Position numbers and translations under genes: made by a program
Shown: piece by piece, positions 25,501-59,932 of the stretch
How positions within the stretch are numbered: the first letter of the stretch is position 1
How the letters are laid out: each line of letters begins with the position of its first letter
The notes under the pieces: model-generated
Database searches by the model: none
What the model was told of the DNA's origin: nothing
What the model saw: the letters and a program-made list of their open reading frames with translations, nothing else
Origin: a virus
Taxonomy: Duplodnaviria > Caudoviricetes
Length of the DNA: 64,000 bases
IMG/VR virus record: IMGVR_UViG_3300031994_000022
Direction: 5' to 3' (one strand)

Positions 25501-26057
25501 GATCGAAAGTACATTAAGAGCATGGGATTTGATTTAGAATGGAGGTAAATAACTATGGCAATGTTTAAAGCAACCGCAGAAATTACGGTTTCTGTTGAGA
25601 TAGCAGTTAACGCAGATAATATTGAGGAAGCAAAAGAAAAGGTGGAGAGCGTAGAAGATATAGGATTCTACCTTGAGGGAATGCAGTTGAGTAACGGAGT
25701 TGAAATTGTAGGATGTGACGAACCAAGTTGGTATGTTGAATACGATGGGTATGTGGATAAACATTAAGGGGAGGATTAAATATGGAAAAGAGATATTATT
25801 CAATTGAAATTAACAAGGATGATCCAACAGCATTGACATATTGCTTAAGGAAATTGGAAAACGCAATTCCTGACTATGAGTACGATTGGCGTATTGTGAT
25901 AAACGCTGGTGGTATTGATTATGGAATATATCTCAATATAGATATTGAGGATAAAGAAATTGAGATATGTAACCAACCAAGATATGGAAATGAAGCAGAA
26001 GATATGCTAGATGATGTAATCGAATTATTCGAAGAAGAAGATGATGATGAAGAATGA
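19518..26057 (+). other. Run of about 20 small, acidic hypothetical early genes
   Basis: Co-oriented ORFs with clear RBSs (e.g. 20351, 20578, 21582, 21918, 22318, 23176, 24810, 25337, 25555, 25782); no families recognised. Confidence 0.8.
19738..19784 (+). promoter_or_regulatory. SigA-type promoter preceded by the AAGGATAAAATTAA box
   Basis: Box 19738-19751, TTGACA 19755, weak extended -10. Confidence 0.6.
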
Positions 26058-29000
26058 AATGAATGTTTTATAGAAGGGAGAATGAATATGTTTAAGCATA
26101 GATTTTTTAATAAGGAAAACCGAAAGACAGACAAGGAAATAAGGGAGTTTATAACGAATACAAATAAGCCGTTGGTGTACACATATGGTTACGCTTGGAA
26201 ATCACCAACAACTTATAGAGTTCCTATGGATAAAGAAGAAGCGTTAAAGGCAATTGAAAAAAATGGTCTTACGGATATAACAGAAGAAGATGACGTTATA
26301 CACATTAATCAGTTTAGCGAAAATGATATGTGGTAAATAAAAGAAAGGATTTATTTAAAGGGAGGTAGAAATATGTATACAGAACTTACAACATTAAAGG
26401 AACTTGAGGATTTAGGTTCAGCACTTACTATTGAAGGACTTGCCGAGGATAGTATCAAAGATTTTATAGAATGGGTTAAGCAGTATACTCCGATGATAAA
26501 TGAAACGGCATATATCATTAAAGGAAAAACAATGAATACAGTATATGGATTAACAGGCAATAATGCATATCCTGATGATTGCAATATTGTTTCAATTAAG
26601 TTAGAGGATATGGAAAACAGTATGGCTGTTGTAATGCCAAGATTCCAAATAGGAGCAAGGTGGTTTGATGATATTGTTATGAATAACGCAGCAAGGGAGG
26701 AGTGAATATGTATGACAAGATAACTATTAACAAAGGAGATATAAATGAATTGTGTGAACACCTGGATATGAATGGATATTGTTTTGAACAGATTGGTCAG
26801 AATTTGTATGTATTCTATGAGGAAACAGATTATGTTCGGACAATTCTAAAGGAACGTGGTTATGAATATTGGGTAAACGATGAGATAGATATGTAATTAA
26901 AATAAGATTTTAAGGAGAAATGAATATGGGATACGAAAGTAAGTTTTATGCAGTAAAAGAATATAATTTTCCAGAGGGTATACATCATTCAGATATTATA
27001 GCTACATTAGATATGTGCAAGATGGGATATGACGATGATGTACTAACCTTCCGCAAATTGTTTGATACGGAAACGCCGTTCTCTATTTACATGTATGAAT
27101 ATGATCCTGAAACGGAAGAAGAAAAATATATGGATGTAATCGAAGACAAATATGGAGAGAGGTTAAAATATATTTCAGACAAGAAAAAGGGAATTGAAAT
27201 GCTAAAGAGAATTATAGACAACGATGATTATTGGAGATTTAAGTTGTTATTGGAATTTATGAGGACATTTGCAGATTATGATGATGTGTATATAGTCCAC
27301 TATGGTTATTGATAAAAGTAAGATTTTAAGGAGGTAGAGCAAATGAGAAGTGAAATAGAAATCAGAGAAAAAATTGACAGCCTTATGGAAGCTTTCAGAA
27401 AAGCAAAAAAAGCAGACATTGGAGTTGTTAAGAAAGCAAATCTTGTTGAAGATATAGCTGGACAGATAGATATGTTGTTATGGGTAGTAGAAGACGAAAG
27501 TGGATATGATCCATTGGATGAACGCATTGACGAGATACTGATTAATAAGGATTATTTGATGGAGATGATGATATGAATTGTTGGGATTATAAGGTAATGC
27601 AAATTTATAACGAAATCAATGTGTTGTGCGAAAACAATCGTAATGGCAGATATGATAAGCAGATTGCAGAGAAAAGAAGTGAATTGAACGAAGTATTAAA
27701 GAAGTGTAAATAAAAATCACATTTTAAGGGAGGTAGTAATTATGGGAAATAGTTTTTTTGATTGTATGATTGTAACAGACGGAAGAAACACTTGTAAGGC
27801 AAGTGATTTAGGAACTAAACGAAATCCATTTAAGTCTTCTCAACGTGAACTTTCACATATAGAACGAACAGAAGCTGAAGTATATGCAACTGATAATAAA
27901 TGGGCAATAGAAAATTATGAGGCAACTCATAAATAAAAACAACAATTTAAGGAAGGAGGAAATTAAGCTATGGTTACAGTAATATGCTATGGGCAGAAAA
28001 AGGAATATGTAAGTAGACAAACAGCTATCAATGAATACTTGGAGGGTATGATGTGCTGCGAAGGAAGTGAAAGGGATCGGTACACTAATGTGTATCTCGA
28101 TCTGATTGAAGGTAAAGATGTTTGTACAGATGAATGGGAGGTAAGAGATATGTATAGAAAAGCAACACAAGAAGAGATCAGAAACATTAAGGCAAAGGAT
28201 TGGTTCTTAGTACGAGATGCTTATGATACCGATAAAGTGTGGGAGTTTCAAGCATACCGCAATGCAAGTTGTACGAACGGAAGATGGTATGTGACAATGG
28301 AAACATATGGATTAGATGGAAGAACAGGAAATCTTATACTGGTTGGATATACATCTTTTGGCGATGACAGAATAGTTATTGAAGAATAAAACGAATATTT
28401 GATGGAGGTGGTTATATGGTTGAACCTTTTAAAATCACAAAGGAAATGATTGATAAGAGACAAGAGAAGAAAGACGAAATAATGGAACATATTAATAAGA
28501 AGATAGCAGAGGCAGTTAAACGTGGTTGGAACGAAACAAATTTTGATTGTTACGATGATAATTTATATGACGAAATAAAAAGAGAATATATAAATGCAGG
28601 GTATAGAGTGTATCCAAACATTTATGCAAGATGTGGTGGTAGAAATGATTTTATAGCATGGTAAATAAAACCAAGATTTGAAAGGAGAATGAATATGACT
28701 GGTGAAATATTTGCAAGAATATTAATAAACGAAAAGGAACGCAAAGAAATTGAAAAAGCAATATCTGTTATGAGTAATATTTTTGGAGCTTATGAAGAAA
28801 CTGGATTGCAAAGCGTTGAACCGTTGCTTGATACTTTGACAAATGGCGTAGCACTACTTGAAGAAATACTTAAGGAAAATGAATAATGAATACTAAATAA
28901 AACAAGGTTTTTAAGGGAGGTGTAATATGTGGACAGAAAAAGCAAAGGAATTATACAAAGTGTTAAATGAGTTTATGGACGAAATAGAATTTAGATATGA

Positions 29001-31051
29001 CGAAGATGAGGATGAATATTATATGTTAGGAAAACAGAATTGGGAAGATCGAGATTTTCTCAGTACTCTTGATGCATTAAAGGGAGATTTGGAATATTAC
29101 ATTGGGTTAGGGAGGTAAACAACATGGCAAAGTACAGAGTTTGTGTAGAAAGTATTGATTATCTTTATATTGACATTGAAGCAGATACACCGGAAGAAGC
29201 AAAGGAATTTGCTGACGAGTATGTAGATGGCGGTGAATTTCATAGCAACGCAACAGATGTTGGTTGGAGATATTCCGAAACAATAAAACTTAAAGATGAT
29301 GCGATAGTAGATTATAACGTAAAGGAGTTTATGAAAGGATTAGAAAGATAAAATAATGTTTTCATAGGAGGTAAAAGCAATGCCATATAGAGAATTTATT
29401 TTATACAAATGTAATGATGGTATTAGTTATAACATATTTTATAAAAATTCAGATGGAAATGGAGAGCATTTGATTTGTACTGTCGGTTCATTTGAAAAAG
29501 CAAAACAATGGGTTGACGAATGGTACAAGAGAAATAAATAAAATAACTTTTTGATAGGAGGTAACAATATGAACGTATTAGATTATGTATTTGCATATGT
29601 AACGGAAGAAGGATACAGAGGAATAATAAGGGCAGATAGTGAAGAGGAAGCAATAGAACGCCAAAATGATTTTGATCCGAATGACGAAGTGAAATATATA
29701 GTTAGATTATCAGATTTAGATAACGATTATGGTGTTATAGAAGAGTGTAGAATTAATGAAGCCATTGATAATCAAAGATATATAAGACAATACTCATTTG
29801 ATATTGATGGAGATACAGACGCAGATGAACTTGCAAGAGTAATAAATAAAGCTGGACTTGGAGTTAAAGTAATAGGGTCAGAATGGAAAGCAACGTGGAA
29901 ATATGGTGATTATAAAAAAGGTGAACCACCAATAAGTTCCAACTAATAAAAGCAGAGTTTCATAAGGAGGTAAAACAAATGAGAACACATAGAAAATGTA
30001 TCAGATGTAATACATATGTCAAAAGAGAAACGAGTAAAGGACTCCGCAGAGAGTATCCGTTTTACTGCCCGAAGTGTGACGAGAATATGTATAGATTTGA
30101 AACGATAAAAATAAATAAAAACAGATTTGAAGGGAGATAACAATATGATTAAAGAAACAATTATAGCACTTGTAAAACCCGGAGATATGGTAGAGATAAC
30201 ACCTATTTCTAACGTTCCAAATGCTGAACGCAGATTTAAGGTAAACGAAGTTCTTGATAACGGATTTTTATATGGATTATCCACTACTTGTGATGGTTAT
30301 GTAATACCATTCAGTTGGATAAAAGATATTAAAATTGTAGCGTAATGAAAGCTGGTTTGAAAGGAGATAATGCTATGAAGTATGTAGTGTTAGCAAGATC
30401 AAAAACGGATGATATGATACTAAGTAGTTTTGGTGTCTTCAGAAGTAAGAGAAATGCAAATCGACAGAAAGATACAATTACTGAGGAAGACCCTATAGAT
30501 AATGCATATTATTGTGTAGAGGATGTTGATCCAACAGGAAGTTTTGCAAACGATAATGTATGGGATTGAATTATTAAATGAAAGCTGAATTTCATAAGGG
30601 AGGCGATGAATATGGAAAACTATTGGATACAAGTAAACGATTATATGGAACCATTTAAAATAGCATTAACAGAAGAGGAAGCAAACGGAGTAAAAAAAGT
30701 TTTAGTGAAATTAGCCCAGGTTGATGAGGATGCTTTAGTACAAATGACAGATGAAGACGGCGACATTGTATTTGTAGACAATTATAAAAAGTGGATTAAA
30801 ACACACAGATAAAAAGTAAATTTCAAAGGAGATAAAGATATGAAATTAAAAGAATTTAAAAATACAATGGTGTGGAAAGTTGCGGATTGTGTTGAATATG
30901 TTGACGAAGATGGTGTTGAAATAGAACCGACTACCGAAGTTAAAAGAAGAAAAATGAACAATATGGAAGTTATTAGTCATGGAACAATGATTGATGGTGA
31001 CATAGCAACACTTGAAGTTGTTTTAGGTAAACGATAAAAGAATACTTTTAA
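26054..31051 (+). repeat. Cluster 1 of intergenic ATNAAA-N6-TTTNAW sites (17 copies) separating small hypothetical genes
   Basis: Sites start at 26054, 26337, 26896, 27312, 27710, 27933, 28386, 28665, 28897, 29348, 29538, 29946, 30114, 30345, 30578, 30809 and 31034. Confidence 0.92.
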
Positions 31052-31065
31052 AAGGAGATAAGGAT

Positions 31066-33320: not shown

Positions 33321-33334
33321 AGGAGGAAATTAAT

Positions 33335-33526: not shown

Positions 33527-33577
33527 TCCAAGGCAACTCGACGGAGTTGCTTTTTTAATGGAAAGGAGAAAAGAAAT

Positions 33578-34429: not shown

Positions 34430-34447
34430 TAAAGGAGGAAATTAATT

Positions 34448-37087: not shown

Positions 37088-38080
37088 ATGTGTGCCAGAG
37101 ATGATGTTGATAAGAAAAATTATGAAATAATAAAAAGAATTGCGGCTGAATATCCTAATGAATTAATGTTGTATATTAATAGTTTAACAAGAAAAACATC
37201 TTATACTAAAATGGTTTATGCTAGATATGTATCAAAATTTCTTAATTATATGGAAACAGAACTAAAACTAAATCCATATATTATAAAGAATTATATTAAA
37301 ATTAAACCAATGAATATTGATGGGTATATGGAAAAAATCAAATATAATGAAAACGGAAAAGAGAATTCAGGGATGTATCTTAACGCACAATTGGCGGCAA
37401 TCAATGGATATTTTGGATTTTTATTAAAAAATGAGATAATAAAATCGAATCCATGTGCTAATATAGAAAACCCAAGAGATAATAAGGAACATCGTATAAC
37501 AACTATTACTGATAATGACTTAAATATTATTGTGGATAATATAAAAAAAGGAACTGGTTCTTATAAAGCCAAAGCCACTCAGAAAAAATGGGTAAATAGA
37601 GATATAGCGATAATAACTCTAGGTATTACAACCGGCTTAAGAATTAGTGCTATAGTAGGGATTGATATTGATGATATAAATTTAAAAGAAAAATATATAA
37701 TGGTTACAGAAAAAGGAGATGTTCAAAAAGTTATATATATAGGTGATAAAACTATATTATCTTTAAAAAAATGGATTAATGATCGAAAGCAGATGGTGGA
37801 CAAAAATGAAAAAGCATTATTTATTTGTCAAGGTAATCATAGGATATCGGTTCGAGCTATAGAAAACAGATTTAAAAAGCTTTCAGAAGAAACAGGGAAG
37901 AAAATTACACCGCATAAGATGAGAGCAACTTGTGCAACCAGACTTTATGAGGAAACCGGAGATATATACTTGGTACAACAGCAGCTTGGTCATAAAAATA
38001 TAGAGAATACTAAGAGATACGCAGCAGTTTCCGAGCGTAAAAAGAGAGAGGCAGCAAGCATACTTGATAACTTATACTAA
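37088..38080 (+). CDS. Tyrosine recombinase (XerC/D-like), catalytically intact
   Basis: R (TGLRISA), K (TEKGD), HxxR (PHKMR), H (LGH) and Y (TKRY); lacks a lambda-Int-type arm-binding N-terminus. Confidence 0.93.
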   Translation: MCARDDVDKKNYEIIKRIAAEYPNELMLYINSLTRKTSYTKMVYARYVSKFLNYMETELKLNPYIIKNYIKIKPMNIDGYMEKIKYNENGKENSGMYLNAQLAAINGYFGFLLKNEIIKSNPCANIENPRDNKEHRITTITDNDLNIIVDNIKKGTGSYKAKATQKKWVNRDIAIITLGITTGLRISAIVGIDIDDINLKEKYIMVTEKGDVQKVIYIGDKTILSLKKWINDRKQMVDKNEKALFICQGNHRISVRAIENRFKKLSEETGKKITPHKMRATCATRLYEETGDIYLVQQQLGHKNIENTKRYAAVSERKKREAASILDNLY

Positions 38081-38126
38081 AAGGCTAAAATTAAATGTTG
38101 ACAAAAGTGAAATCGTTTGGTATATT
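38081..38126 (+). promoter_or_regulatory. SigA-type promoter preceded by the AAGGCTAAAATTAA box
   Basis: TTGACA 38098, 17-bp spacer, TGgTATATT. Confidence 0.8.
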
Positions 38127-38450
38127 GTAATTACAAAAAACAAAAAATCTTACTCATTACAACCAAGCCCCTACGGTAAAAACCATCTACCTCTGACCGT
38201 AGGGGTTCTCCATATAAAGGAAAGGAAGGTAAATGCATATGAATAAATTAAGAATTGGTGATATGGTAGTTGTAGCTGCTGATCTGGCATACCTCACGCA
38301 TGACAGCAGAAAAAGTCAAATAGCAGAAGTGGTTGGAATCTATCCACACTTCTTCAACGTAAAGTACGAAGAGGGGTATCAGCAGAGTATTCAGTATAAA
38401 GATATAAGCCAAATATCAAAGCTAAGTATCTAATAAGGAGAAAACTAAAC

Positions 38451-38759: not shown

Positions 38760-41700
38760 TAAGGAGAAAATTAAATGATTGGATATTACTACCTTCGAGA
38801 TTTACTCGGAGACACAACAGAAGTGGTATCGGCGGTTAATGACCGCGGTGAAAATGTGCTGACATATAAGGCAAAAGAGAATTGCTATTGCGTCGAAACA
38901 ATACAAGGAAACGGTAAAATTCGTAAGAATTATTATTGGAAAGACGGTACAACGGAGGAGATATATGAGTCATAAATTATTATGGGTAAAAGACAATTCA
39001 CACAATTGGATAACCCCAGGTGGAGATCCGGTATGGATTTGTCCGGTATGTGGTGGTGGTTGGCATGTGTATGGAATTGAAAATCCTCGCAAGCAGAGCG
39101 AATGTAAAGATTGCGGAGCTAAAATAGAGGGGTATAAATATGGTAATGGATAATGTGTTTTTAAATGGAATTAACGTTATTGTAACAACTAAATATGTTC
39201 AAGTTCGTAAGCATAAAAAAAGACGTATTAATAAAAAATGGGCTAAGAAATATGGTTATAAGGAAATCAATACGCAGCAAGATGGTGAAATCTTATTTGA
39301 TGAAGAGAAACGAGTTATTTACTGTACTCATAATGATTTTCAAAAAATAAAAGACTGGGTACCACGAATGGTATTCGATGAATGTTCTACAGATAAAAAC
39401 CCTTATAGATATGAGCCTGGAGAAGTAAATTTGGAATATACAATCGATCCATATGTTAATTATTGTAATGATACATATATAGGAAGAGTTAGATGGTAAT
39501 ATCAAATTGTGATTTTATAGGAGGATGAATGTGGAAGATATAGTAGAGGAATTACAAAAAATAGTAACGGAACTGAAAGAGTACAGACGAGATGTCTATA
39601 ACTGCGATATGTGCAACAATCACACTACTCTGGCGAGCGAGTATCCGTGCAATGAATGCAAGAGGAGTTATAGAGATTATTTTACACTCAGAACGGAGGA
39701 TTAATCATGCAAGCAATAATAAGAGTAGATGTTCCGGATTGGCAGATTGAGAAGACGGTGTCTGTATATTTTCCAGACACTATGATGATACATAGCGTTT
39801 GTGAACAAGCACAACCAATAGGGAAATGGATAGGTGGAACTATATGCAGCACTTGTAATTATAAGAAGATGTTCCTGTGGCAGTATAACTACTGTCCAAA
39901 ATGCGGTACAAGATTGGAGGTAGAAAAATGTTAATAACTTTAATAGTTTTAGTTTTAATAATCATAGGTCGTTGGATGATGACTAAGAAGAACGATGATA
40001 TGGAATTTTATGGATCAATAATACTCATAATTGGATGTATAGCAATGTTTGTTTGCTTAGTAACCATATTATGCCAACAGACTATGACGACCAGAAAAAT
40101 AAACAGAAATACGATCAGATATGAAAGCCTACAAAAGAGATTAGAGATTGTTAATTCCGAGTATGAAGATGTTTCCAAGTCTGATGTAATAAAAGATATA
40201 GCAAAATGGAATCAAGAAGCTTACGACTATAAATATTGGAATAATAATTTATTTACGAACTGGATGCATAGTGATAAAGTTGCAGAATCATATAAGTATA
40301 TTGAATATTGAAAGTGGGGTGGTGATGAGAATGACTGATGCAGAATTAGAAAAAGTGATAGCCAAAGCAAAAAAGAAAGTAGGAGAAATGGAACTTAAAT
40401 CAGCACCATTCGATTGGAATGATAACTTTTCGGAGATAGCAATCGAGGACTTCAATCTCTTTAAGGATAAACTAAGCTATGGAATTTGCCAGTCAATAGG
40501 GTTGGCACTTGCAAAACTAGAGATATTAGAGAAACAAGGGTGCAAGGTAGAGGAGGTAGAGGAATGAATACTTTTCAATTAATTTGTTTTTCAATTCTAG
40601 TCTTATTATTTTTATACTTTTTCTATATAAGACCGATCGTCGCTATTGGTGACTTGCCGGGTTGCATAGACAGACTTACTAGAGAAGTCGAAGAATTAAA
40701 GGAAGTGTTGAAGAATGAAAATCATCGAACGATTTAAACGGAATCCGTGTAAAGAATGCTTATGGTACGTCAAAAAAACAACTTGTGTCAATCAAAGAAG
40801 TGTTCGGTACAAGGAGGAAGTTATCCGTTTGTCACGAAATTAGATAGAATGTTTTGTGAACCATACAAAAGGGAGGAAGAAAGAATGGAAAATGATAACT
40901 ACTCAGTAAATAAAGTTGATGCTAATTATATAAAGAAATTGAACGATACAAAGGACAGTCTTGAGTCATTCAAGAAGAAAATCGCATTATTAGAATCAAC
41001 AACCGAAGCAATAGATTTTGCTATTGAATTAATAGATAGAGAAATAGACATAATTAAATGGGTCAATGTAGTATCAGGAGATGAGGAGGGTGCTGATGAC
41101 GAATGAAGAAATGATTAAAGATTTAAGTCGAATAATGGATTTGCTCGATATGCATATTGACCTTAATCAATCATTAAATATAACTCAAATGGAAGTTGCA
41201 TACTTAAGTCTTAAGTGTATTGTAAGGGCATTAGGGCAACAGACTTGCGATGGTATGCGTGATGCTACAGAAGAAGAACGTAAATCAACTAAAGCTTACA
41301 TAGATTCCATAAGTAAGCCGACAGGACTACAATTTGATGATATATATGAGGAACTTGACTTTGTTCAACCACACAAAAAACTATCTGTGAAGCTTCAGCT
41401 TTGCGAAGATTGTATTAGTAGAGAAGCACTTTTGGAAGAATTAGGAGAAGAGCCATTTAATTGGAATGATTCGCCGGAAGCATTCCAAGAAGTGAGAGAT
41501 TATCAATGGTTTAGATCACTTATTGAAGATGCTCCATCTATCACACCGAGTTATAACTCAATTACAACCGAGTTAAAACCATCTGAGGATTGTATCAGCA
41601 GAGCAGCGGTTATTGGACTTGTTGAGCAATATTCATACATTATTGAAAACAGATATAGCGCATTTATTACTAAAATTAAACATTTGCCATCAGTAACACC

Positions 41701-45884: not shown

Positions 45885-46808
45885 ATGAAACACTTTATGG
45901 ATATATCAAGGATAATAGAAAATGAGGGTTCTGAATTGACAATGAGTAATACCGAGGCATTTAAACCCGGAGACATTATACAAATTTCCGAAAAGGTTGA
46001 TGGCGCAAATGCGTCTATAGCTTTAGACGATAACGGAAATCTTGTCGCTTACTCACGAAAGAATGAACTTAATTATCAAAATACCCTTCGTGGTTTTTGG
46101 AATTATGTGCAGACTTTGGATAGAGAAAAGTTTCGGGATTTAGGAAAACGTGTATGTTTTGGCGAATGGTTGGTATCACATACTGTCAAGTATAACGCAG
46201 ATGCTTATGACAAGTGGTATGTGTATGATATGTATGATACGGAAACAGAAGAATGGCTGCCACAGAGTGTTGTAAAGGAATTTGCAGAGACTCACGGACT
46301 TGAATATATACATGTTTTATATGAGGGAGAATTTATTTCTTGGGATCATTGTCGTACATTTCTTAACAGTCCGGCTTATGGAGATAGTCAGGAAGGTATT
46401 GTGGTAAAGAATCAATCTAAACTTAATTGTCCAGATATAAGGCGACCATTTTACCTCAAGATAGTTAATGATTCTTTTATGGAAACCAAAGCCCATAATC
46501 ATATTAAAAAGGTGCTTGATCCACAGCATCAGGAGGAAAAGAATCAAGCGGAAGAGATAGCCAATGAAGTAGTTACTAAGGCAAGAGTACAAAAAGAAAT
46601 TCATAAGATGATTGATGAGGGTATTCTTCCTGAGAAACTTCAACCTAAAGATATGAGTGTGGTTGCAAGAAATTTACCGAAGAGGATATATGATGACATA
46701 GTTAAAGAAGAACTAGAACGTATTTCAGATACTATTGGCAATCATTATTTTGGTAAAGCGGTTAATGCAGTAACTATGAATTATGCGAAAGATATAATAT
46801 TAGGATAA
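45885..46808 (+). CDS. ATP-dependent RNA ligase (Rnl2-like)
   Basis: Motif I EKVDGAN, plus FGEW, YD, EGIVVK and LKIV. Confidence 0.85.
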   Translation: MKHFMDISRIIENEGSELTMSNTEAFKPGDIIQISEKVDGANASIALDDNGNLVAYSRKNELNYQNTLRGFWNYVQTLDREKFRDLGKRVCFGEWLVSHTVKYNADAYDKWYVYDMYDTETEEWLPQSVVKEFAETHGLEYIHVLYEGEFISWDHCRTFLNSPAYGDSQEGIVVKNQSKLNCPDIRRPFYLKIVNDSFMETKAHNHIKKVLDPQHQEEKNQAEEIANEVVTKARVQKEIHKMIDEGILPEKLQPKDMSVVARNLPKRIYDDIVKEELERISDTIGNHYFGKAVNAVTMNYAKDIILG

Positions 46809-46837
46809 AATGAGTCTTTTAAAGGAGGTAATTAAAT

Positions 46838-48901
46838 ATGTTGGATTTTAAAGTTGTAAAAATTGGATTAGAGAATCATTTTAAAAAGATGTCGGAAGAG
46901 AATGAACGTCTATTTGTAGTTGATGTAGATAAAGATGAGATGTGGAATCTGTATTTAGACAGTATACCATCAGAAGATAACAAAATCTTTAGGCAAAGAA
47001 GAGAATATGACTGCTCTTGTTGTAGACATTTTATTAAATCCATTGGAAATGTTGTGTCAATTAAAGATGGAGTTGTTACATCAATATGGGATTTCGAAAC
47101 CACTGAACCAAAATGGAACATGGTTGTAAAGAAGCTTTCTGAATATATAAAGTCTAAGACAATATCAGATATATTTATTTCAAAGTTCGCAGACATAGGT
47201 ACAGACTACAATATGGAGCAGAGCGAAGATGGAAAGCTTATTAAGTGGGAACATTTTTATTGTAAGCTTCCGGATAAGTTTGTTTTTAGATCCAGATATG
47301 ACACGATTGATACTGAACGTAGTCAGTATAGAGATGTCAGAAATGTTTTTAAGCGTTCACTTGATGAACTTTCCATGGATGCGGTTGACACCGTACTCGA
47401 TCTGATTAATCAGGGTAGCTTGTATAAAGGTGACGAATACAAGAGAGTTGTGCAGAATTTTAGAGCATTAAAGAAAGAATATGACTCACTTTCAGATTAT
47501 CAGAAAGAGCTATTTGCTTGGGAGAAGTCGGTTGTTACCGATGTTGCAACTGCAAAAATCCGTAATACTGCGATAGGAACATTACTTATAGATATTTCCG
47601 AAAATCTTGATTTGGAAGTGGCAGTTAAGAAGTATGAAGCGGTTACAGCTCCAGCAAATTACAAGAGATCAAAGCCGATTTTTACTAAGCAGATGCTTGA
47701 GGATGCACAGAAGACTATAACAGAACTTGGATATTTAGATTCATTAGAGAGAAGATATGCAAATGCAGATGATATTACCGTAAATAATATAATCTTTAGC
47801 AATAAAGATACAGCAAAACGTGTGCAGGGTGGTAGTTCATTGTTTGATGAATTAAGCAAAGAGGTTAAATCTTCTCCGAAGAAATTCGACAGAGTAGAAG
47901 AAATTGGAATTGAAAAATTTATTAATGATGTGGTTCCAACGGCAACCGAAATAGAAGCATATGTAGAAGGAAAACATAGTCAAAATTTTGTGTCGCTGAT
48001 AGCTCCGGTAAACAAGGACTCAAAGACAATGTTTAAATGGAATAATAATTTTTCCTGGGCATATACGGGCAATGTTACTGACTCGATGGTCAAACAGAAT
48101 GTAAAGAATGCTGGTGGTAAAGTAGATGGAGTACTTCGATTCAGTATTCAGTGGAATGATTTAGGAGAATATGATGGTAATGATCTTGATGCTCATTGTA
48201 TCGAACCTAATCTAAATGAAATCTTTTACAGTAACTGTAGGAAACCTAGTTATTCAAGATTGGGTGGACAGCTTGATATAGATATTATAAATCCTAGTAG
48301 AGATACTCCAGCAGTTGAAAATATTACATGGGGAGATATTTCGAAAATGCAGGATGGTGTTTATAAGTTTTTTGTTCATTGTTACACTAACAGAGGTGGA
48401 CATTCAGGATTTAGAGCTGAGATAGAATTTAATGGACAGATATATTCTTATGATTACACAAAGGATCTTCGTCAGGGTGAAAAAGTTCAAGTAGCTGAAG
48501 TTACATTAAAGAATGGACAGTTTACTATAGAGGAAAAGCTCACATCTAATTGTTCTAGTAGAGAAGTTTGGGGTATAAAAACAAACGAATTTACCCCAGT
48601 TTCAGTTATATGTTATTCGCCAAATTATTGGGATGAACAGAATGGAATAGGAAACAAACATTATTTCTTTATGCTTAAGGATTGTGTTAATCCAGAACTT
48701 CCAAATGCTTATTATAATGAGTTCCTTAATGGAGAGTTATATCCTAAGCATCGTAAAGTAATGGAAGCGTTGGCTTCAAAGGCTCACGTTCAAGATGCAG
48801 ATGATCAGTTGTCTGGTATAGGATTTAGTTCGACATTAAGAAATGAACTTGTTGTAAAGGTTAAGGGTGCTACCGAAAGAATACTTAAAATAAAATTTTA
48901 A
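46838..48901 (+). CDS. Large phage protein with a YfaP/DUF2135-like beta-sandwich domain
   Basis: 687 aa; LRFSIQW...DLDAHCIEP...LDIDI...AVENITW; N-terminal CSCC. Confidence 0.55.
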   Translation: MLDFKVVKIGLENHFKKMSEENERLFVVDVDKDEMWNLYLDSIPSEDNKIFRQRREYDCSCCRHFIKSIGNVVSIKDGVVTSIWDFETTEPKWNMVVKKLSEYIKSKTISDIFISKFADIGTDYNMEQSEDGKLIKWEHFYCKLPDKFVFRSRYDTIDTERSQYRDVRNVFKRSLDELSMDAVDTVLDLINQGSLYKGDEYKRVVQNFRALKKEYDSLSDYQKELFAWEKSVVTDVATAKIRNTAIGTLLIDISENLDLEVAVKKYEAVTAPANYKRSKPIFTKQMLEDAQKTITELGYLDSLERRYANADDITVNNIIFSNKDTAKRVQGGSSLFDELSKEVKSSPKKFDRVEEIGIEKFINDVVPTATEIEAYVEGKHSQNFVSLIAPVNKDSKTMFKWNNNFSWAYTGNVTDSMVKQNVKNAGGKVDGVLRFSIQWNDLGEYDGNDLDAHCIEPNLNEIFYSNCRKPSYSRLGGQLDIDIINPSRDTPAVENITWGDISKMQDGVYKFFVHCYTNRGGHSGFRAEIEFNGQIYSYDYTKDLRQGEKVQVAEVTLKNGQFTIEEKLTSNCSSREVWGIKTNEFTPVSVICYSPNYWDEQNGIGNKHYFFMLKDCVNPELPNAYYNEFLNGELYPKHRKVMEALASKAHVQDADDQLSGIGFSSTLRNELVVKVKGATERILKIKF

Positions 48902-49320: not shown

Positions 49321-49331
49321 ATAAAATTTAC

Positions 49332-49433
49332 GATGAGGTGGCGGAAAAGGTAGACGCAGTGAGAGGACTGATGCTTATAATGAAGGACTTACTGATGGAG
49401 CATCATGTAAGGTGCAAATCCTTACCCTCATCA
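49332..49433 (+). tRNA. tRNA-Leu-like class II scaffold with a 24-nt anticodon loop
   Basis: GATGAGG/CCTCATC-A acceptor, GCG-GAAAAGGTAGA-CGC D arm, GTGAG/CTTAC stem, TGATG-GAG-CATCA variable arm, TAAGG-TGCAAAT-CCTTA T arm. Confidence 0.7.
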
Positions 49434-49434
49434 A

Positions 49435-49530: not shown

Positions 49531-50714
49531 AAACCATTATATAAAAAATAATTTTTAAAGGCGGAAATTAAAATGAAAAAGATTGTTTGCGGTTGCTTTG
49601 GAAACATATATTACGCAACGATATTAAAAGATGGTTTAATGTCGGATGTTAACAGAGTAGATGTTACAGACGATGCTATTGATGCGGTACTCCAACATAT
49701 AATTTCGATGGATAAATTTGATAAAGAAGGTTTTGCTGGATACGTTTTTCGTAAGACGAAAACTGATGGACATATATGTCTATGCGTATTTGATAAGGAT
49801 AAATACGAACTAAAAAAGAAATAATAGTTATTACCGCAGGGGTGGCAGTGGTACCAATCTTAGCGGATTATCCCTCCTGATGAAGAGGTTTCGCTGCGGT
49901 ATATAAATGAATATGTGCCCATGGTTATGTGGTAGTACCCTCATGTAACCTATAAAACTGAATTTTTATTGGAGGGTAAAAAATGGAAAATTTGCAAATA
50001 TATGGTGAGATGCAACTGGAAAGCGGAAGACTTGCGGATGAAGTCGTGAAAACCCTTATAGATAAAGGGTTTTTGATAGCTCGAACCGGATGTGATCAGA
50101 CAAAAACATGGTATGAAATTTCAAAAGAAAAGCAATTAAATCAGACTTTTATAGGAGAATAAGAAATGGTAAAGACTATTACAAAATATTATTGTGATAT
50201 ATGCGGAAAGGAAGCTCCTTACTGTTCAAAATATAAGATACCAGATATATATGAAAAGATATATCATGATGCGCATAATCTTGAACTTAAAAAAGAAATA
50301 GGTGGATTTCATCCGATAGAAGGAGATATATGTCCAAAGTGCGCAGAACTTATATATCTTGCTATAAAAAATGTAAAGAAGGTGGTGACTGAGAAATGAT
50401 AGATGCGATTAGAGCTTTTGAAAAAACAAAATATAATTTCGAGATTAATTTAGTAAAAGATAATATTGAAAATGGGATAAACAACGCTATAGAAAGAGGC
50501 GAGTACACTTGTAAGATAACTATAAAAGCAGATACGAAACAGTTTGTCCGTGATGAAATTACGAAGTGGCTTATAGGATTAGGTTATAGATGTACGATTC
50601 CTAAGTATGAAAGCCAAGACGGATGTCCTTCCGATCAAATGAATTATTGGAATGAAATAGATATATCTTGGAAAAGTGAAAAAATGATTAACGAGGAGAG
50701 GTATTCAAAGAAAA

Positions 50715-51236
50715 ATGTATAAAGTAGAATCAGATTTTACATATAAAGATTACAGATGTGTAGTTATCTTTTGTGGTATGGGACATCGCTGCGGTTATGT
50801 AGGTATCAAACCCGGACATCCACTATATAAAAAGGAATATACAGATTATTTAGATATTCCCAAGTCTGAATTAGATGGCGAAGAAATAGGCAAACGAGGT
50901 ATCATGCCAATATTTTTCACGGCATTTGATGATGACGACAGAGTAAGAATGGATGTATATTTCAATGTTCATGGTGGATTAACTTATTCGGGTGATAATA
51001 ATGGTACTTATCCTGTGGAAAGTAATTTGTGGTGGCTAGGATTTGATTGTGGTCATTATAACGATGGTAAGGATTTGGAATTGATGGAAAAATATTGGGG
51101 CGATGATCCACTTATTAAAAGAAGATTGGAATCGGAAAGAGAATACTATATTGATGCACCAATTCGTTCCAAGGAATATGTGGAAGATGAATGCAAGTCC
51201 TTAGTAGATCAGATAATTGAGTTAATTAGCAAATAA
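50715..51236 (+). CDS. Hypothetical phage protein
   Basis: HRCGYV...VHGGLTYS...WWLGFDCGHYND motif set; function unknown. Confidence 0.65.
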   Translation: MYKVESDFTYKDYRCVVIFCGMGHRCGYVGIKPGHPLYKKEYTDYLDIPKSELDGEEIGKRGIMPIFFTAFDDDDRVRMDVYFNVHGGLTYSGDNNGTYPVESNLWWLGFDCGHYNDGKDLELMEKYWGDDPLIKRRLESEREYYIDAPIRSKEYVEDECKSLVDQIIELISK

Positions 51237-51632
51237 TTATGGAGATAAATATATTAAAGGAGAAGATATGGATTATATAATAGACGAGATAAAAGAAGTA
51301 GTATTTAATGACGAAGACTTAATGCTTAAAGGAGTTACAACAGAGGGAGAAGAAATTCTAATAAAAATGCCAATCGAACAAGCATTTAAATTACTAAAAA
51401 ACAATGAGAGGGATGTTTAATAGGAGATTAATTATGAATGACAAGTGTAGTAACTGTAAATATTACCACAAACTTAAACATTCTTTCAGGCAAGGAAAAG
51501 GTTTTACCGAAACGGCTTGCTGCATAGTATTAACTAGGTGCGATGAAGATATTGATAAATTTGATAGTTTTGTAATTGAAGTTGAGCCGGACGACATGTG
51601 TGAGATGTTTACTGAAAGAGAGGAATTGCATT

Positions 51633-52202
51633 ATGATTAATTCTTTATACCCAATATTTCAGCGTTGGTCAGAACGAGGTTCTGCGTACATAATTTCAGA
51701 CACCCATTTCGAAGACTCTGATTGTAAGCTGATGGATTCTGATTGGATAATACCGGAAGAGCAGGTAAAAATAATAAATTCTATGGTACACAAGAATGAT
51801 ACTTTAATCCATCTTGGTGATGTCGGCAATCCCAAATGGATAACTAAATTAAAAGCTGGACATAAGGTATTGATAATGGGAAACCATGATCAGTCCATAC
51901 AGAAATTCAAACCATATTTTGATGAAGTATATAGTGGTTGTTTATTTATTTCAGATAAAATACTCCTGTCTCACGAACCGGTGCATGGTCTATCTTGGTG
52001 TTTGAATATACATGGGCACGACCATAATGGTGTTGAGCCGTATAAAGAGGGTTGTAAACACATTAACCTTGCAGCAAATGTGTGTGGATATACACCGATT
52101 AGCTTGGGGAAAATAATAAAGGATGGTGTGCTGAGTGGTATTCATTCTATTCATAGGCAGACTATTGATAGAGCAACAGAAAATAAAAGCGTTATTTTAT
52201 AA
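51633..52202 (+). CDS. Metallophosphoesterase (calcineurin-like)
   Basis: ISDTHF, HLGDVG, GNHD, SHEP and HGHDH. Confidence 0.88.
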   Translation: MINSLYPIFQRWSERGSAYIISDTHFEDSDCKLMDSDWIIPEEQVKIINSMVHKNDTLIHLGDVGNPKWITKLKAGHKVLIMGNHDQSIQKFKPYFDEVYSGCLFISDKILLSHEPVHGLSWCLNIHGHDHNGVEPYKEGCKHINLAANVCGYTPISLGKIIKDGVLSGIHSIHRQTIDRATENKSVIL

Positions 52203-52857
52203 GGAGAGAGAGAAAAAATGGAAGATAAAAAAATAGGATTAGTAACCGTTACATCTGAAGAAGATGGGAAAAGAATTTGCGATGCTTTAGCAGAAAATGG
52301 ATTAGGAACAACTTCTTATTCATATCCGAAAAATGAAGGAAAAATAGAAGTGGTTTTACCAAATAGTGATCGGGAATTTTATCAAGTAACAATGCCCCGT
52401 ATAGAAAAGTTTGATATTACTGATAAAACATATGAAACAAAATATATTCCATCTTCAAACGTAAAGTTAGTCTTATCTGATGATGGCAAGTATATTATAG
52501 TTCAATATAAAACTGAACTCCGTGGGAGAATTGTTAAGACAGAAGCTAATATATATGACGAAATTAAAGAACTGATGAAATAGAACTTTTATGGGAGGAG
52601 AGGCAGTTGATATGAATCCTGAGTTTGAATTACAAATGAAGTTCATAGGATATACCGATCATGGTGTTATTGTTGACATATGTGGACATCCTATGCTTAT
52701 GCCTAATATTGATATTGAAAAACTTAATAAAAAACTCGTTGAGACTGGAGAAAATCCATTGAGACCTATTATGGTTATGAGAATTAATCATGATGGAACT
52801 GAGACAGAAGTTGAGTTCGCAAAATAATAAAATGAAACTTTTGTGGGAGGATATTAT

Positions 52858-53292
52858 ATGGATATAAAAGAATATATGAAAAAATACTACGAAAAAAATA
52901 AAGAAAAAATAAAAGAACGCAGTAAAAAATACTATAAAGATAATAAAGAAAAAATAAATGAACGAACTAAAAAATATCGTGAAAACCATAGAGAAAAAAT
53001 AAGAGAATATCAAAAGAAATATTGTGATAAAAACAAGGAAAAGAAAAGGGAATACGAAAAGAACTACCGTAAAGATAATGAAGAGAAAATAAAAGAATAT
53101 AGGAAAGAACATCCTGCATATGATTACTATAGACCTACGGCTTATGCTCCCAATCATATGAAGAGATACACAGATGAGGAAATAGCATTAATAAGAAATA
53201 TGAATTTAAGCAACACAGAAGTAGCAGGAAAATTACACCGTTCAAGAAAAGCTATAGAGCTAAAGAGACAGAGATTAGGATTGTATCAGTAG
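52858..53292 (+). CDS. Protein with KEKIxEYxKKY helical repeats and a C-terminal HTH-like segment
   Basis: About 5 imperfect 14-aa repeats, then YTDEEIALIRNMNLSNTEVAGKLHRS. Confidence 0.6.
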   Translation: MDIKEYMKKYYEKNKEKIKERSKKYYKDNKEKINERTKKYRENHREKIREYQKKYCDKNKEKKREYEKNYRKDNEEKIKEYRKEHPAYDYYRPTAYAPNHMKRYTDEEIALIRNMNLSNTEVAGKLHRSRKAIELKRQRLGLYQ

Positions 53293-55756
53293 AGAGGCAG
53301 TGCTTAGACTTGTTGAGCAGTAGTATACCCAGAATAATTCGAAAATGTTGAAATTATGAGTATAAGTGGGAATTACAGAATAGATAAAATAAACTTTTTA
53401 TGGGAGTGTAAGAGATGAATGAAATAAAAGGATTAATATCTCTCTTGGGAGAGGAAAATGTAGAAGAATTAAAGAAAGGTCTTGTACGATTAATATTGGA
53501 ACAAGCCGAAAGTGACCTAAAAGATTATGGCGAATACCTTCTGTATCCACCTGACATGAGGAGCATAATTAAAGATGTTATGGAAAGTACTGATAAAAAA
53601 CTATCTAAAATGTATAAGGATGCCGTTATAGAAATCAATCAGGATTATATTGATAAGATGAAAGATTATATGACGCATCAGGTTAATGAAAAAGAATTGA
53701 GAACTAAGATATTTGATTATGCTGATCAGTTAAAATATAAGGGCAACGAATTCAGCAAGGAGTATCAGATATCTGAGGAGTTATTCAAGATACTAAAGGA
53801 AACAGAACAATAAATCAATATTTTATAGGAGAAAGATATGACAAAATATTATTGTGATTTATGTGGTCGAGAAGCCCAAAGCGTTGAAGAATATATGTTG
53901 CCAGATTTAAAAGATAAAGAATCTAAAGATTCGCAGGGTTACGTGATTAGGAGGACTTTCACATATGTACCTACTAAAATGGAATTATGTAGAGACTGTA
54001 GAGGAATAGTTGGTAGTTTTGTACATATGATCAAGAACACCCCTACGGAATTATATACTAGCAAAAAAATAACAAAAATCGAATGGGAATAATATGGGAA
54101 GAATAATAAAAGTACAATTTGATGGGAGGAATAATTATGAAAGTATATTGTACAGTTAACACATATGGCAGAAGACTTCCCACAGGACAGATGCCATTAA
54201 AAAATGATTTAGAAATTGAATTATCCAATAAATACAATGGATTTGCTGAAATGAAAATAGGAGATGAAGTTTTTTATATATATGTTGAAGAACTTAAAGC
54301 TGCTATAGATTGTATGCGTAATGAACTTAGATATCGCGGTTAATAGAATAAGTTTTAATAGGAGGAATGATTATGGATGTAAAAAATTTATCGTGGGAAC
54401 AGATTAAAGAGCTTGCAGAGATAGCTATGAAGAATAGGAGTGATTTTTCGCTAACATTGTGCGCAGATGGAGATTGTAGTTTAGATATTTCGAAACATGA
54501 TTATAGAATAACACCAATAACTGCATCACCAATGACTGGAACAGCTATTCCATGGAATGGTGGTATCAACAAAGAAATTCCGTGTTAAATAAAAATGTAT
54601 TTTATGGGAGAAAATTAAAATGATTTATTTAGTTATGTATGCCTTCTATAGTGATTGGGAAATATATGGATATTTTACCAATAGAGAAGATGCTGAAAAG
54701 TATGTAGTTAAATATCCAGAGAAAGATTTATTCATAGAAGAAGTTTCTTGTTTTGATAATAACGAAGATCTTCGAGGTATTAAAGTAAGATATGAAAAGC
54801 CAATAATATTTAGACGAAATAAAACTTCATGGGATTGTTCAGATAATGGAGAACCTATTTTGTATCAAAGTCAATTTGCTAGAAGTAATCATGTTGAGGG
54901 CGGTTGGGGTGATTGGGTGAGAGTATGGGTTAATACTGAAAAGAATGATATTGATTTACAAATGAAAATTGCTCAAGACATCTTTTATCAATTCTTAGAA
55001 TCATGTGATGGGAATATTACTCAAAAAGCCATTGACGAGTTTAATAAAATACTTTCCGCCGAAGAAGATGCGAGAAAAGAAGCTGAGAAACAAGAAAAAA
55101 TTAAAAAAAAGGAACTAGCAGAACTGAAGAGATTAAAAGAAAAATATGAGCAATAAAATTCTATGGGAGGAATGGTATGCAAAAACAACTACCAAAGACA
55201 GAACAATATTTGAATCATATGGAAGAACTATATAGTAAATATGCTGGTATTGATTGGGATACTTATGATTCTGCTTCTGATGAAGATAAAGGAATTATAG
55301 AGCATCCAATGTTACATCTTGCTGAAACAATTTATATGGAATCTCCCGAATGGGCAGAGGATTTAGCTAAATATTTATGTGTCCTTTGTGATATAAAACA
55401 AATTGGCGTTGAGGTAAATGTAGAATGAAAGTTAATATAGGCGACAAGGTATATATCCCAGAGCATAAACGCCCATTTCGTGTTAAAGCTAGAGATAATA
55501 GATATATCATCTGCACTAAACCATATAATCCGAAACATACGGTAATTTATTTTATTATCGATCTTCAGGATAAATGGAGAGCACCTGATGATAGAGTATT
55601 CTGCTCTGGATATGAAACCGATGATGATTGCAAGGAAAGATTAGAGGAGCTGCAATTGGGAAAAATAAGTTTAAGTAGGCGGAGGGGCGTTCCGTTGGAT
55701 ATAGATATAGAATAAAAATGTAGTTTCATAAAAATATTATAAAAAGGAGAAAAAAT

Positions 55757-57234: not shown

Positions 57235-57245
57235 GAGGATAATAT

Positions 57246-58364
57246 ATGACTACGTTAAAAGCCGTTATTGGGGCAAATTATGGAGATGAAGGAAAGGGTA
57301 AGATGACTGATTATTTTGCCTATAAATCAGAAAAAAAATGTATTGTAGTTTGTTCTAATGGCGGCGCACAACGTGGGCATACTGTTCTTACAATTGATAA
57401 AGGACAACATATATTTCATCATTTTGGTTCGGGAACATTTGCGGGGGCTGATACTTATTTACCTAGTCAATATATAGTAAATCCAATGATTTTTATGAAA
57501 GAGTATAGAGAGATTTACCCTATAAATTCTCAAGTATATGTTAATAAAAATGCTTTATGCTCTACTCCCTATGATATGATCGTTAATCAGATTATCGAGG
57601 AATCAAGAGGAATAAATAAACACGGTAGTTGTGGAGTTGGTATATGGGAAACGATATTGAGAAATGAAGCGACTATTGGTGATATGCTTAAAATGACATA
57701 TGAGCAAATGAAACGATATTTACAGGGCGTTCGTGACAATTATTATCTGTTAAGACTAAAGAGTAAACATATAGATATACCTTCTAACTGGGAATCCGTA
57801 TTTTTTAATGATAATCTTATTGAAAATTATATACAAGATTTTCAACATATGGTTAGACATATGAATTTCACTACAGATGATATATTGAAGAGATATTCAA
57901 CTGTTATATTCGAAAATGGACAAGGATTATTATTGGATCAAAATATTAAAAATTCCCAATATAGTACTCCGAGTAATACGGGGTCAAAGAATATTAAAAA
58001 GATGGTACAAGATGTGTTTGGAGACGAGTATGAAATGGAAGTATGTTATGTAACACGGTCATATTTAACCAGACATGGAGAAGGAGAACTTCCGTTAGAA
58101 ATTTCAAAACCACGATTCTTCAAACTCGATACTTCGTCGGAAACAAATGTATGGAATAAAAACCAAGGCTCGTTTCGATATGGAATATTAAATGTTAATG
58201 ATTTAATAAACAGAATTACGGAAGATTTTAATGATTATTGGGATATAAAACAATCTAGTATGAGTTTAGCTATTACACACTGGGATGAAAACCAAATTGA
58301 TACATCTAAAATTAAGTGCAAAATTTATTATGGTACAGGAGCTGAGAGAACTGCAATTATGTGA
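57246..58364 (+). CDS. Divergent adenylosuccinate synthetase-like protein
   Basis: GANYGDEGKGK P-loop, GGAQRGHT, HGSCGVGI, FENGQGLLLD and YLTRHGEG. Confidence 0.85.
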   Translation: MTTLKAVIGANYGDEGKGKMTDYFAYKSEKKCIVVCSNGGAQRGHTVLTIDKGQHIFHHFGSGTFAGADTYLPSQYIVNPMIFMKEYREIYPINSQVYVNKNALCSTPYDMIVNQIIEESRGINKHGSCGVGIWETILRNEATIGDMLKMTYEQMKRYLQGVRDNYYLLRLKSKHIDIPSNWESVFFNDNLIENYIQDFQHMVRHMNFTTDDILKRYSTVIFENGQGLLLDQNIKNSQYSTPSNTGSKNIKKMVQDVFGDEYEMEVCYVTRSYLTRHGEGELPLEISKPRFFKLDTSSETNVWNKNQGSFRYGILNVNDLINRITEDFNDYWDIKQSSMSLAITHWDENQIDTSKIKCKIYYGTGAERTAIM

Positions 58365-59885
58365 AAATGGCGCAGTTGATTGGAGAGTATATGAAAGATA
58401 TTATAGTTATATGTCCTACAGTTAGGATAGCCACTCAAAAATGTAAAGAATTTTTAAATGCAAATAAAGAATACGTGTATCGTTTTAATAAAGCGCAGTT
58501 ATTAGTTGGATTAGCCAATGGGATAAATATTTGTTTCAAAGGCGAAACAGAAGGACAGAGAGCGTTACGAGGAATGCATGCTGATATTATTCAGATAGAT
58601 GAGTTTCCGATGGATTTCAATGAAAACAAAGTTTGATGGGAGATAAATAATGTTACAAATAAAAAACAATAGGTTATTTTATAATACTGGAGATAAAGTA
58701 CATGGTTATGAACTTAGAATAGCAGTAGGAGATTCATTTTGTGGTGCTGATCCTTATAGTAAAGAAGAGTGCTTAGAACTTGAAAAACAATTTCGAGCAG
58801 CTGGATTTGAGACTAGAGTTGCACAACATGGTGAAACTAAAGAATGGTCTGTGGCAATTATAGGATAGAACAAAGTTTGAAAGGGGAATTATATGGAAAA
58901 AGTAGAAGAAAGACAAATTAATTTAAAATTTCATCAGTTTTATTGTGATGAATGTGGAAAGTTTCTTAAAGAAGATTTCGAAGATCAAGAAGGACGATAT
59001 GAAACTCCTGGTAAATTTTTAATCCATTTGAGCTATGGAGATTTTTTTGCAAAAAATCTAGATTATGAATATAAAGGTACATTTTGTGGGGATTGTAAGA
59101 CTAAAAAGTATAAATGGCTAGAAGAACAATTAGTTAAATTGGGGTTTACTAGAGTTTAAAGAGAAAAATAAGTTTGATGGAGGTGTGTATGTTATCTCAA
59201 GCAAATATAGATAAACTTTGTATGACCGGAATATACGAGTGTAAACCTGTACTCAGTTGGATAGAATCTTGGAGAAGAAACGATCCATATCATTGTATCA
59301 ATTGGACTTTTAAAATTGCGGCATATGAGGATCATAATAAATATTACATGCATGACACATATTGGTCTGGTGGTAGCGGTCTTAGTATTGAATTAACAGA
59401 CGATAATTTTGATAAATTCAAGTTATTATTTGATATGAATGATGTTCGTAAAGTAAGTCCACCTGATTTTTATGACTATAATGAAGAAGATAGATGGCAT
59501 GTTGCGTTAGATAGTGCTGGATATCAATTCAGTAGACATTATTATGTGCGGAAAGATGCAAAGAAAAATAAAGAGTTTTTATTAGAAAGATTACAAAATG
59601 AACTTAAATCTTTAAAAGACCAAGTGAGATGGAAAGAAGATGAAATTAAAAAAGTATGGGAGGAAGGTAAATGATAGGTATTAGAACGTCTATGAAATCA
59701 CTTCCGGAGTATTGCGATGATTGTATCTATTATGGGTGTAAACCACATCCATACAAAGGGTGGTCAAATAGTTGTGAATTATGCACACAATGCTTAGATG
59801 ATGATAACGGAGATGAAAACTGGATTTATGACGGAAATGGACGACCTAATAATTGTCCATTGATAGAAATAAAAGAATAGTTTTA

Positions 59886-59932
59886 AAGGATAAAATTAAA
59901 AAATTGACTTTCACTTACTCTTATAATATAAT
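59886..59932 (+). promoter_or_regulatory. SigA-type promoter preceded by the AAGGATAAAATTAA box
   Basis: TTGACT 59904, 17-bp spacer, TATAAT 59927. Confidence 0.8.

Follow-up and report, generated by a model that had tools for sequence, protein, structure and literature searches.

Ordered junction sites with conserved centres point to an undescribed gene-exchange scaffold in the accessory regions of SPbeta-like phages

The stretch of viral DNA considered here, a window of 64,000 nucleotides, represents the reverse strand of a 141,835-bp IMG/VR virus record (IMGVR_UViG_3300031994_000022; Caudoviricetes) that is approximately 95% complete. Between positions 26054 and 59886 small accessory genes are separated by about 32 copies of an 18-bp element, ATNAAA-N6-TTTNAW, which consists of two 6-bp inverted arms around a 6-bp centre and is placed between the stop codon of one gene and the ribosome-binding site (RBS) of the next. 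A gene coding for a Xer-like tyrosine recombinase lies within this array. In this article we describe the sites and their setting, compare them among related phages, and discuss what they may do and which known systems they resemble.

Counted by strand, the window holds 53 matches to the motif (at 37 positions), compared to 4.56 ± 2.84 and at most 11 in 100 dinucleotide shuffles. The array comprises 27 exact plus-strand copies, 25 of which are found at gene junctions; the remaining two, at 44437 and 49623, lie inside genes and look like chance matches, and so do the exact copies at 63947 and 6629, outside the array. At least seven near copies complete the set, having either a 5-nt centre (30115, 30345, 54589) or one arm mismatch (26337, 27933, 52827, 53809). 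The sites form two clusters (26054-31051 and 49541-55729) and four singles (39501, 46805, 58620, 59869), and two further sites are located beyond the window, at positions 74553 and 76461 on the same scale. In the following list and throughout, G000 is the genome of the studied phage and G006 its closest relative, complete at 123,919 bp; other labels beginning with G or L denote further sequences used for comparison.

26054..26071 (+): exact-motif site at a junction, with the RBS 4 nt further on
26337..26354 (+): degenerate junction site with one mismatch in the right arm; position weight matrix score 13.0
26896..26913 (+): junction site abutting RBS; exact motif
27312..27329 (+): junction site; centre as in G006 111717
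27710..27727 (+): junction site; exact motif
27933..27950 (+): degenerate junction site; same centre in the G006 site upstream of G006 gene 112413-112571
28386..28403 (+): junction site; exact motif
28665..28682 (+): junction site; exact motif
28897..28914 (+): junction site; matches G006 113288 at 18/18 positions, with neither flank related
29348..29365 (+): junction site; centre as in G006 113594
29538..29555 (+): junction site; centre as in G006 113931
29946..29963 (+): junction site; centre as in G006 114180
30115..30131 (+): junction site, 5-nt centre; near copy
30345..30361 (+): junction site, 5-nt centre; near copy
30578..30595 (+): junction site with fully palindromic arms; exact motif
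30809..30826 (+): junction site; exact motif
31034..31051 (+): junction site, last of cluster 1; exact motif
39501..39518 (+): junction site; exact motif
46805..46822 (+): junction site; in G006 (3708) its left arm and centre are followed by right arm and leader of the 49952 site
49541..49558 (+): junction site followed by a weak RBS; exact motif
49952..49969 (+): junction site; same centre in L071
50135..50152 (+): junction site; centre as in G006 3892
52183..52200 (+): junction site; exact motif
52575..52592 (+): junction site; same centre in L071
52827..52844 (+): degenerate junction site; one arm mismatch
53384..53401 (+): junction site; centre shared with G006, L071 and G011
53809..53826 (+): degenerate junction site; one arm mismatch
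54106..54123 (+): junction site; same centre in G006 and L053
54589..54605 (+): junction site, 5-nt centre; near copy
55712..55729 (+): junction site; RBS 17 nt downstream
58620..58637 (+): junction site; its centre recurs in G006, G001 and L071, and the same site in G012; in the three scored pairs neither flank is related
59869..59886 (+): last site of the array, ahead of a sigma-A-type promoter at 59904-59932

The placement of the element at gene junctions is precise, the site usually ending 0-3 nt ahead of the next RBS. Among the 25 exact junction copies, the RBS starts 0-1 nt past the site in 24, and the upstream stop codon occupies site positions 2-4 in 10 and overlaps position 1 in another 5. 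The 6-nt centres of these copies are all distinct within the genome, and a position table reveals that outside of the 18 bp only a purine at -1 and the subsequent RBS are conserved. All sites are found on the coding strand of their genes and are co-oriented, the left arm being the conserved one. Regarding geometry, the elements show the two inverted arms and the central region of 6-8 bp that characterize Xer/dif-type sites, in a 6-6-6 arrangement in at least 25 copies, the three copies with a 5-bp centre being shorter by one. Arm positions 3 and 16 do not covary, and upon RNA folding of eight sites, five gave no fold at all and the other three folded at -0.1 to -3.7 kcal/mol. An Rfam search of the window returned nothing at the sites and only a tRNA elsewhere. 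Moreover, no sigma-A promoters, terminators or promoter-like hexamer pairs were found at the sites, and promoter-like matches are no commoner in the region than in shuffled sequence. The terminal site at 59869 precedes a promoter and no gene start, which counts against a purely translational role.

Most of what the first-pass annotation had read from this stretch is borne out by these data: few matches are expected by chance, the upstream stop codon often lies inside the site with the RBS close behind, the cores are essentially all different, and the geometry is that of a protein site on double-stranded DNA rather than of an RNA hairpin. Its count of 25 exact matches agrees with the 25 exact copies found at junctions.

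The genes in the slots between sites are nearly all without known function, one of them coding for a phosphoesterase. Also found among the slots are an RNA-ligase-family gene (45885-46808), an adenylosuccinate-synthetase-like gene (57246-58364) and a gene for a 687-amino-acid protein (46838-48901), which shares about 57% identity with proteins of Bacillus Herelleviridae and of the phage pCD1602_4. Similar small genes occupy 18.5-26 kb and 31.3-46.8 kb, yet these segments are nearly site-free. A second repeated leader, a purine-rich block of 13-16 nt including the RBS, precedes several genes at 42090-43200 (starts 42109, 42385 and 43186), and is also present at two G006 junctions as isolated exact matches. 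Two further conserved pieces are a 118-nt stretch at 49829-49946, in which no open reading frame (ORF) was called and which is 92% identical to L071 4045-4163, and a lone hairpin-like exact match of 24 nt at 49403-49426 (G006 9449); either could be a small RNA or a terminator.

G006 and G000 are collinear, and their core genes share 64-77% nucleotide identity, while their accessory regions have almost no genes in common. Comparison of 25 sites in G000 with 15 in G006 nevertheless identified 10 pairs with an identical 6-nt centre in collinear order, where 2000 random draws gave a mean of 0.14 and a maximum of 3. Not a single difference occurs over the 60 centre positions of these pairs; all 12 differences affect the degenerate arm positions 3 (2 pairs), 16 (5 pairs) and 18 (5 pairs). 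The 70 nt on either side of the common sites show random-level identity, and most of the isolated exact matches of at least 16 nt between the two accessory regions overlap sites, or a right arm plus RBS. One gene, 29124-29351 (91% amino-acid identity with its G006 counterpart), resides in a different slot in each phage. The hybrid G006 site, composed of the left half of the 46805 site and the right arm and leader of the 49952 site, marks a 3.1-kb presence/absence difference bounded by two sites.

The breakpoints were mapped in four independent groups, namely the G000/G006 pair, an uncultured clade (G011, G013, G014 and G021; 85-99% identical), the phiCD211 family of Clostridioides difficile, and the pair of SPbeta and phi3T. 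Within the clade, the site scaffold is held in common and the gene content between sites is variable. Of 201 ends of shared sequence blocks, 36 fall at sites compared to about 3 expected, with peaks at 0 (-4 to +3) and 14-29 nt from the site start; in the three groups scored, ends of common sequence lie at site edges 10-12 times as often as expected. Breakpoints affect 30 of 43 clade junctions with a site versus 98 of 292 without (odds ratio 4.6, to be read with the counts not independent and the gene calls crude). At individual sites of the clade, the same downstream gene is found behind three different upstream flanks, or vice versa. The arms follow their flanks: in 103 same-centre clade pairs, the right-arm variant is the same in 49 of 52 with the downstream flank kept, versus 25 of 51 with that flank replaced. 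Likewise, at the site with centre CGATGA, the position-3 variant and the stop codon formed by it change along with the upstream flank.

Across all four groups, at least one flank is replaced in 90 of 132 cross-genome same-centre pairs. Where both flanks are replaced, the identical run amounts to only 12-25 nt (group medians 16-21), beginning at site positions -4 to +4 and mostly stopping at 15-25. Related phages thus retain each site, including its centre, in its place even where the neighbouring genes on one side or on both have been replaced; identity between relatives begins and ends at site edges, and the exchange of flanking genes ends at sites. The earlier proposal that the sites delimit small accessory genes agrees with these alignments, which place presence/absence and replacement breakpoints at the sites. 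A deviating arrangement was observed in the G002 record (L040), where one small, unique gene lies between two 18-bp sites (55028 and 55223) that are identical even in their centres; no other arrangement encountered would be compatible with the insertion of a circle carrying one site, or would permit excision.

The same element, abutting an RBS, is present in many large IMG/VR phage contigs, and it is general in SPbeta-like phages. In the phiCD211 family it takes the form WTAAAA-N6-TTTTAW, with 20 copies in phage pCD1602_4 versus 2 in the control. The phages pCD1602_4, phiCD211 and ES-S-0107-01 have centres in common and in the same order, a flank is replaced in 19 of 23 same-centre pairs, and 35 of 156 block ends fall at sites versus 3.6 expected. 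In phiCD211 (L195 25327-25368) an empty slot consists of two intact sites 6 nt apart, where pCD1602_4 and ES-S-0107-01 harbour a gene of about 45 codons; retention of both flanking sites counts against excision between neighbouring sites. SPbeta carries 42 copies versus 5 in the control, at the stop codons of early-region genes. Between SPbeta and phi3T, 6 of 22 block ends fall at sites (0.5 expected), and a flank is replaced in 6 of the 11 pairs with a common centre. In SPbeta and other lineages the distance from site to RBS varies, starting at 0 nt and in some cases exceeding 20 nt, and some copies in other lineages lie upstream of sigma-A-like promoters. As far as the literature on SPbeta and phiCD211 is searchable, no description of the motif was found.

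The enzyme that might act on the sites is encoded within the array:

37088..38080 (+): candidate enzyme, a Xer-like tyrosine recombinase encoded within the array; Pfam PF00589, 3.6e-33

The product matches the XerA, XerC and XerS models at 1e-40 to 1e-45, below their cut-offs, and all six catalytic residues (R-K-H-R-H-Y) are present in an alignment to XerD. Homologues occur in the motif-bearing G002, G006, G011, G013, G014, G021 and G012, and none was found in the motif-free relatives G023-G028. Judged from its sequence, this protein is the best candidate in this genome for acting on the sites, and we infer that it would catalyze the exchange. No longer dif- or lox-like site beside the recombinase gene is conserved across G000, G006, G011 and G002. 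Directly 3' of the gene (approximately 38095-38205), a sigma-A-like promoter is followed by a perfect 10-bp hairpin in an apparently non-coding stretch. A near-perfect palindrome at 17617-17648, in the divergent region heading the plus-strand genes, has a lox/dif-like geometry (13-bp AT-only arms, 6-bp spacer), but its arms are unlike those of the junction sites.

We tentatively propose, as a reading that falls somewhat short of being probable, that the 18-bp elements are dif/lox-type core recombination sites, which divide the accessory regions of SPbeta-like temperate phages into ordered slots. If two relatives were present in one cell, a tyrosine recombinase would cross them over at sites with the same centre, and each crossover would reassort everything to the left and right of that site. 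Since no two centres within a genome match, neighbouring sites would be unable to recombine, so that no genes would be deleted and their order would be kept. The position of the site between stop codon and RBS would ensure that each exchange joins whole genes. Such a process would be the natural counterpart of cassette exchange with heterospecific lox sites. In its complete form the proposal is more doubtful: large SPbeta-like temperate phages of Firmicutes may possess a natural scaffold for cassette exchange, an ordered series of recombinase sites that share their arms and whose centres are specific to each position and mutually incompatible. A phage tyrosine recombinase might then reassort accessory genes at every gene junction between relatives residing in the same cell, never deleting within one genome.

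A site-specific enzyme appears to be the best reading of the data for several reasons. Inverted arms around a fixed 6-bp spacer are the core-site format of tyrosine recombinases, and difH, the site of XerH, has the same format. The centre, which such an enzyme would not read, is perfectly conserved, and the degenerate arm positions vary with the flanks; an invariant centre and flank-linked arms are the pattern expected of a strand exchange that depends on matching centres and leaves each arm attached to its own side. In addition, the islands of identity are short for homologous recombination, and a Xer-like recombinase with all six catalytic residues is encoded at 37088-38080. Several observations weigh against this reading. 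The conserved 6-bp arms are short for a recombinase site, many recent breakpoints lie just past the RBS and not in the centre, one insertion used the RBS alone as a repeat (microhomology), and many mosaic boundaries occur at junctions free of the motif. Neither do motif and enzyme strictly coincide: G003, G004 and MT835478 possess a homologue of the recombinase and lack the motif, no variant motif having been found in them, while SPbeta and pCD1602_4 have the motif and only other tyrosine recombinases; moreover, the association is confounded by relatedness. The published replacement of the "s" fragment between phi3T and phi3Ts ends without the motif, and the sites are therefore not the sole exchange route. 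Finally, homology-driven exchange is available to the phage, as it encodes a Sak4-like protein of the AAA_24 family (62643-63563, plus strand, directly after the array), which likely has a phage recombination or annealing function; an ERF-type annealing protein is absent.

The latter points lead to the main rival explanation, according to which the elements are short-homology linkers: primarily an expression signal between cistrons at the stop codon and RBS, and secondarily islands of identity used by general phage or host recombination, as in the PeSL cassettes of T4-type phages. These likewise extend from an upstream stop codon to a downstream RBS between ORFans of hyperplastic regions, where they mediate shuffling (PMC2839356, PMC4122927). 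Breakpoints are often found past the RBS, so that site and RBS behave as a single island; the insertion at RBS microhomology and the Sak4-like protein also suit this account, and laboratory hybrids of phi3Ts and SPbeta were joined at homology regions in 15 of 16 joints (10.1101/2020.05.06.055103). Yet inverted arms and a fixed 6-bp spacer would be superfluous in a plain linker, and islands of 12-25 nt, reduced to 12 nt where arm variants differ, are short for homologous recombination. The absence of promoter or terminator features and the terminal site without a gene start do not suit a linker either, and the confinement of all 12 differences to positions 3, 16 and 18, with none in the 60 centre positions, is left unexplained. 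We regard linkers as possible, though on balance unlikely. Less likely again is an operator bound by a dimeric regulator, which in the prophage would silence the accessory genes or act on them as a roadblock, much like mycobacteriophage stoperators or MrpR at its SPBRE sites in SPbeta, and would coincide with mosaic boundaries only because both are found at gene boundaries. The palindromic arms with half-site centres 12 bp apart, the many copies in short gaps between co-oriented early-type genes, and the variable RBS spacing and occasional sigma-A-like promoters in other lineages would all be compatible with an operator. The phage also encodes a homologue of YopR/MrpR, a repressor with a tyrosine-recombinase fold (61170-62123, plus strand; Pfam MrpR_N_CB 7.6e-15; PDB 8a0a 2.2e-11 and 9rd5 1.2e-13). 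However, the sequence common to the yopV and yorE promoter regions of SPbeta, which we take to be SPBRE, differs from the junction motif. MrpR is the master repressor of SPbeta, and its ChAP-seq profile contains only about 10 peaks, at the 15-bp SPBRE motif, versus 42 junction motifs in that phage (PMC10516654). YopR-like genes do not track the motif: the motif-rich G012, G014 and G011 clade lack them, and the motif-free G003 and G004 possess them. YopR/MrpR is an unlikely binder of the sites on both grounds. More generally, binding by a regulator gives no reason for the centres, which would not be read, to be constrained site by site across phages.

A signal at the RNA level, either a processing site or a termination-reinitiation element between the cistrons of a polycistronic transcript, is very improbable. 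It would account for the fixed position relative to stop codon and RBS and for the occurrence of all copies on the coding strand, but the RBS distance is not fixed in SPbeta and other lineages, no Rfam family matches, degeneracy is symmetric between the half-sites, as suits double-stranded DNA, and conserved individual centres find no explanation. An RNA hairpin in particular is ruled out by the absent folds and the lack of covariation between positions 3 and 16. A promoter for a YonO-type phage RNA polymerase was also rejected: YonO yields one late transcript (PMC5467207), and no YonO homologue was found, the 873-amino-acid ORF at 12376-14997 showing no detectable relationship.

As to the phage itself, the YopR-like repressor homologue and the recombinases suggest a temperate, SPbeta-like lifestyle; together with the common motif, they fit a large SPbeta/phiCD211-like temperate siphophage better than the Herelleviridae affiliation guessed initially, which was abandoned. 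A Firmicutes host is indicated by the endolysin (9173-10108, minus strand), which combines an amidase_2 domain with choline-binding repeats; the window also contains a tRNA gene (9013-9081, minus strand; Rfam 51.8 bits). Near-identical cultured relatives were looked for and not found, and a head-region protein had no match within the phage collection.

Most unknown genes of phages, among them genes for host takeover and counter-defence, reside in the accessory regions, and ever since the "linker" idea of modular phage evolution it has been asked how they are shuffled with such precision at gene boundaries. The ordered junction sites with their conserved centres point to an undescribed gene-exchange scaffold, in which the junction is a defined 18-bp element conserved across distant phages. 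Both SPbeta/phi3T of Bacillus subtilis and the phiCD211 family are amenable to laboratory work, which makes the question directly testable. If a recombinase indeed reads the sites, they would represent a new mode of programmed gene exchange in viruses and a natural source of orthogonal recombination sites.

Several known systems share individual features with the element. The first-pass annotation had likened the array to an integron, and the co-oriented series of mostly promoterless small genes, the recombination-type sites and a tyrosine recombinase gene in the locus are indeed common to both. The analogy fails, since the sites are ordered slot boundaries that stay put while genes change, whereas an integron cassette takes its own site along when it moves. 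Neighbouring sites also remain intact, the single-stranded fold and the length of attC, a long imperfect palindrome, are both missing, and the recombinase lacks an IntI signature (TIGR02249, 56 bits versus a cut-off of 265; NF011946, 26 versus 435). Nor are the centres tolerated core mismatches of the kind known from Tn916-type integrases, which had been invoked at the same time: different phages have exactly the same letters in the centre at a given position. Conserved unique centres rather suggest the logic of engineered cassette exchange with heterospecific lox or FRT spacers, where common arms are combined with incompatible spacers and exchange occurs at matching sites only, without deletion between neighbours. 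That version is a laboratory design, whereas the mechanism proposed here is inferred, and we know of no natural phage counterpart.

With XerH/difH and XerS/difSL the element shares inverted arms, inner A-runs and T-runs, a 6-bp centre and a Xer-like enzyme encoded nearby. In difH the 6-bp centre is bordered by A-run and T-run inner arms, and sequence-specific reading by XerH is limited to the inner 5 bp of each arm (PMC3325230, PMC5241119, PMC5357621). A replicon contains just one dif site, which has arms of 10-11 bp and serves dimer resolution under the control of FtsK; the phage array, by contrast, comprises about 32 sites whose centres differ. The pdif sites of Acinetobacter plasmids are 28 bp long (11-6-11), are bound by the host XerC/XerD and flank modules in inverse orientation. 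The phage sites differ in that they comprise 18 bp, are all co-oriented, have their own conserved centres and remain fixed while genes change; moreover, the replicon is a phage, and the enzyme is a candidate only. In the pdif family (PMC6449649), many dif-like sites scattered over the accessory region of one replicon bound small adaptive modules in varied contexts, and multiple dif-like sites flanking gene modules in an accessory region are likewise found in the phage. The PeSLs combine a sigma-70 promoter with a stable stem-loop terminator and recombine by homology; like the phage sites, they are repeated intergenic elements that span from stop codon to RBS between ORFans of hyperplastic regions, at which the ends of indels and replacements fall (PMC2839356, PMC4122927). 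The phage sites carry neither a sigma-70-type promoter nor a stable stem-loop, and instead show an 18-bp recombinase-type geometry with a unique centre. The pdif modules of Acinetobacter plasmids and the PeSLs are the closest known systems, and it is like these that the element works most.

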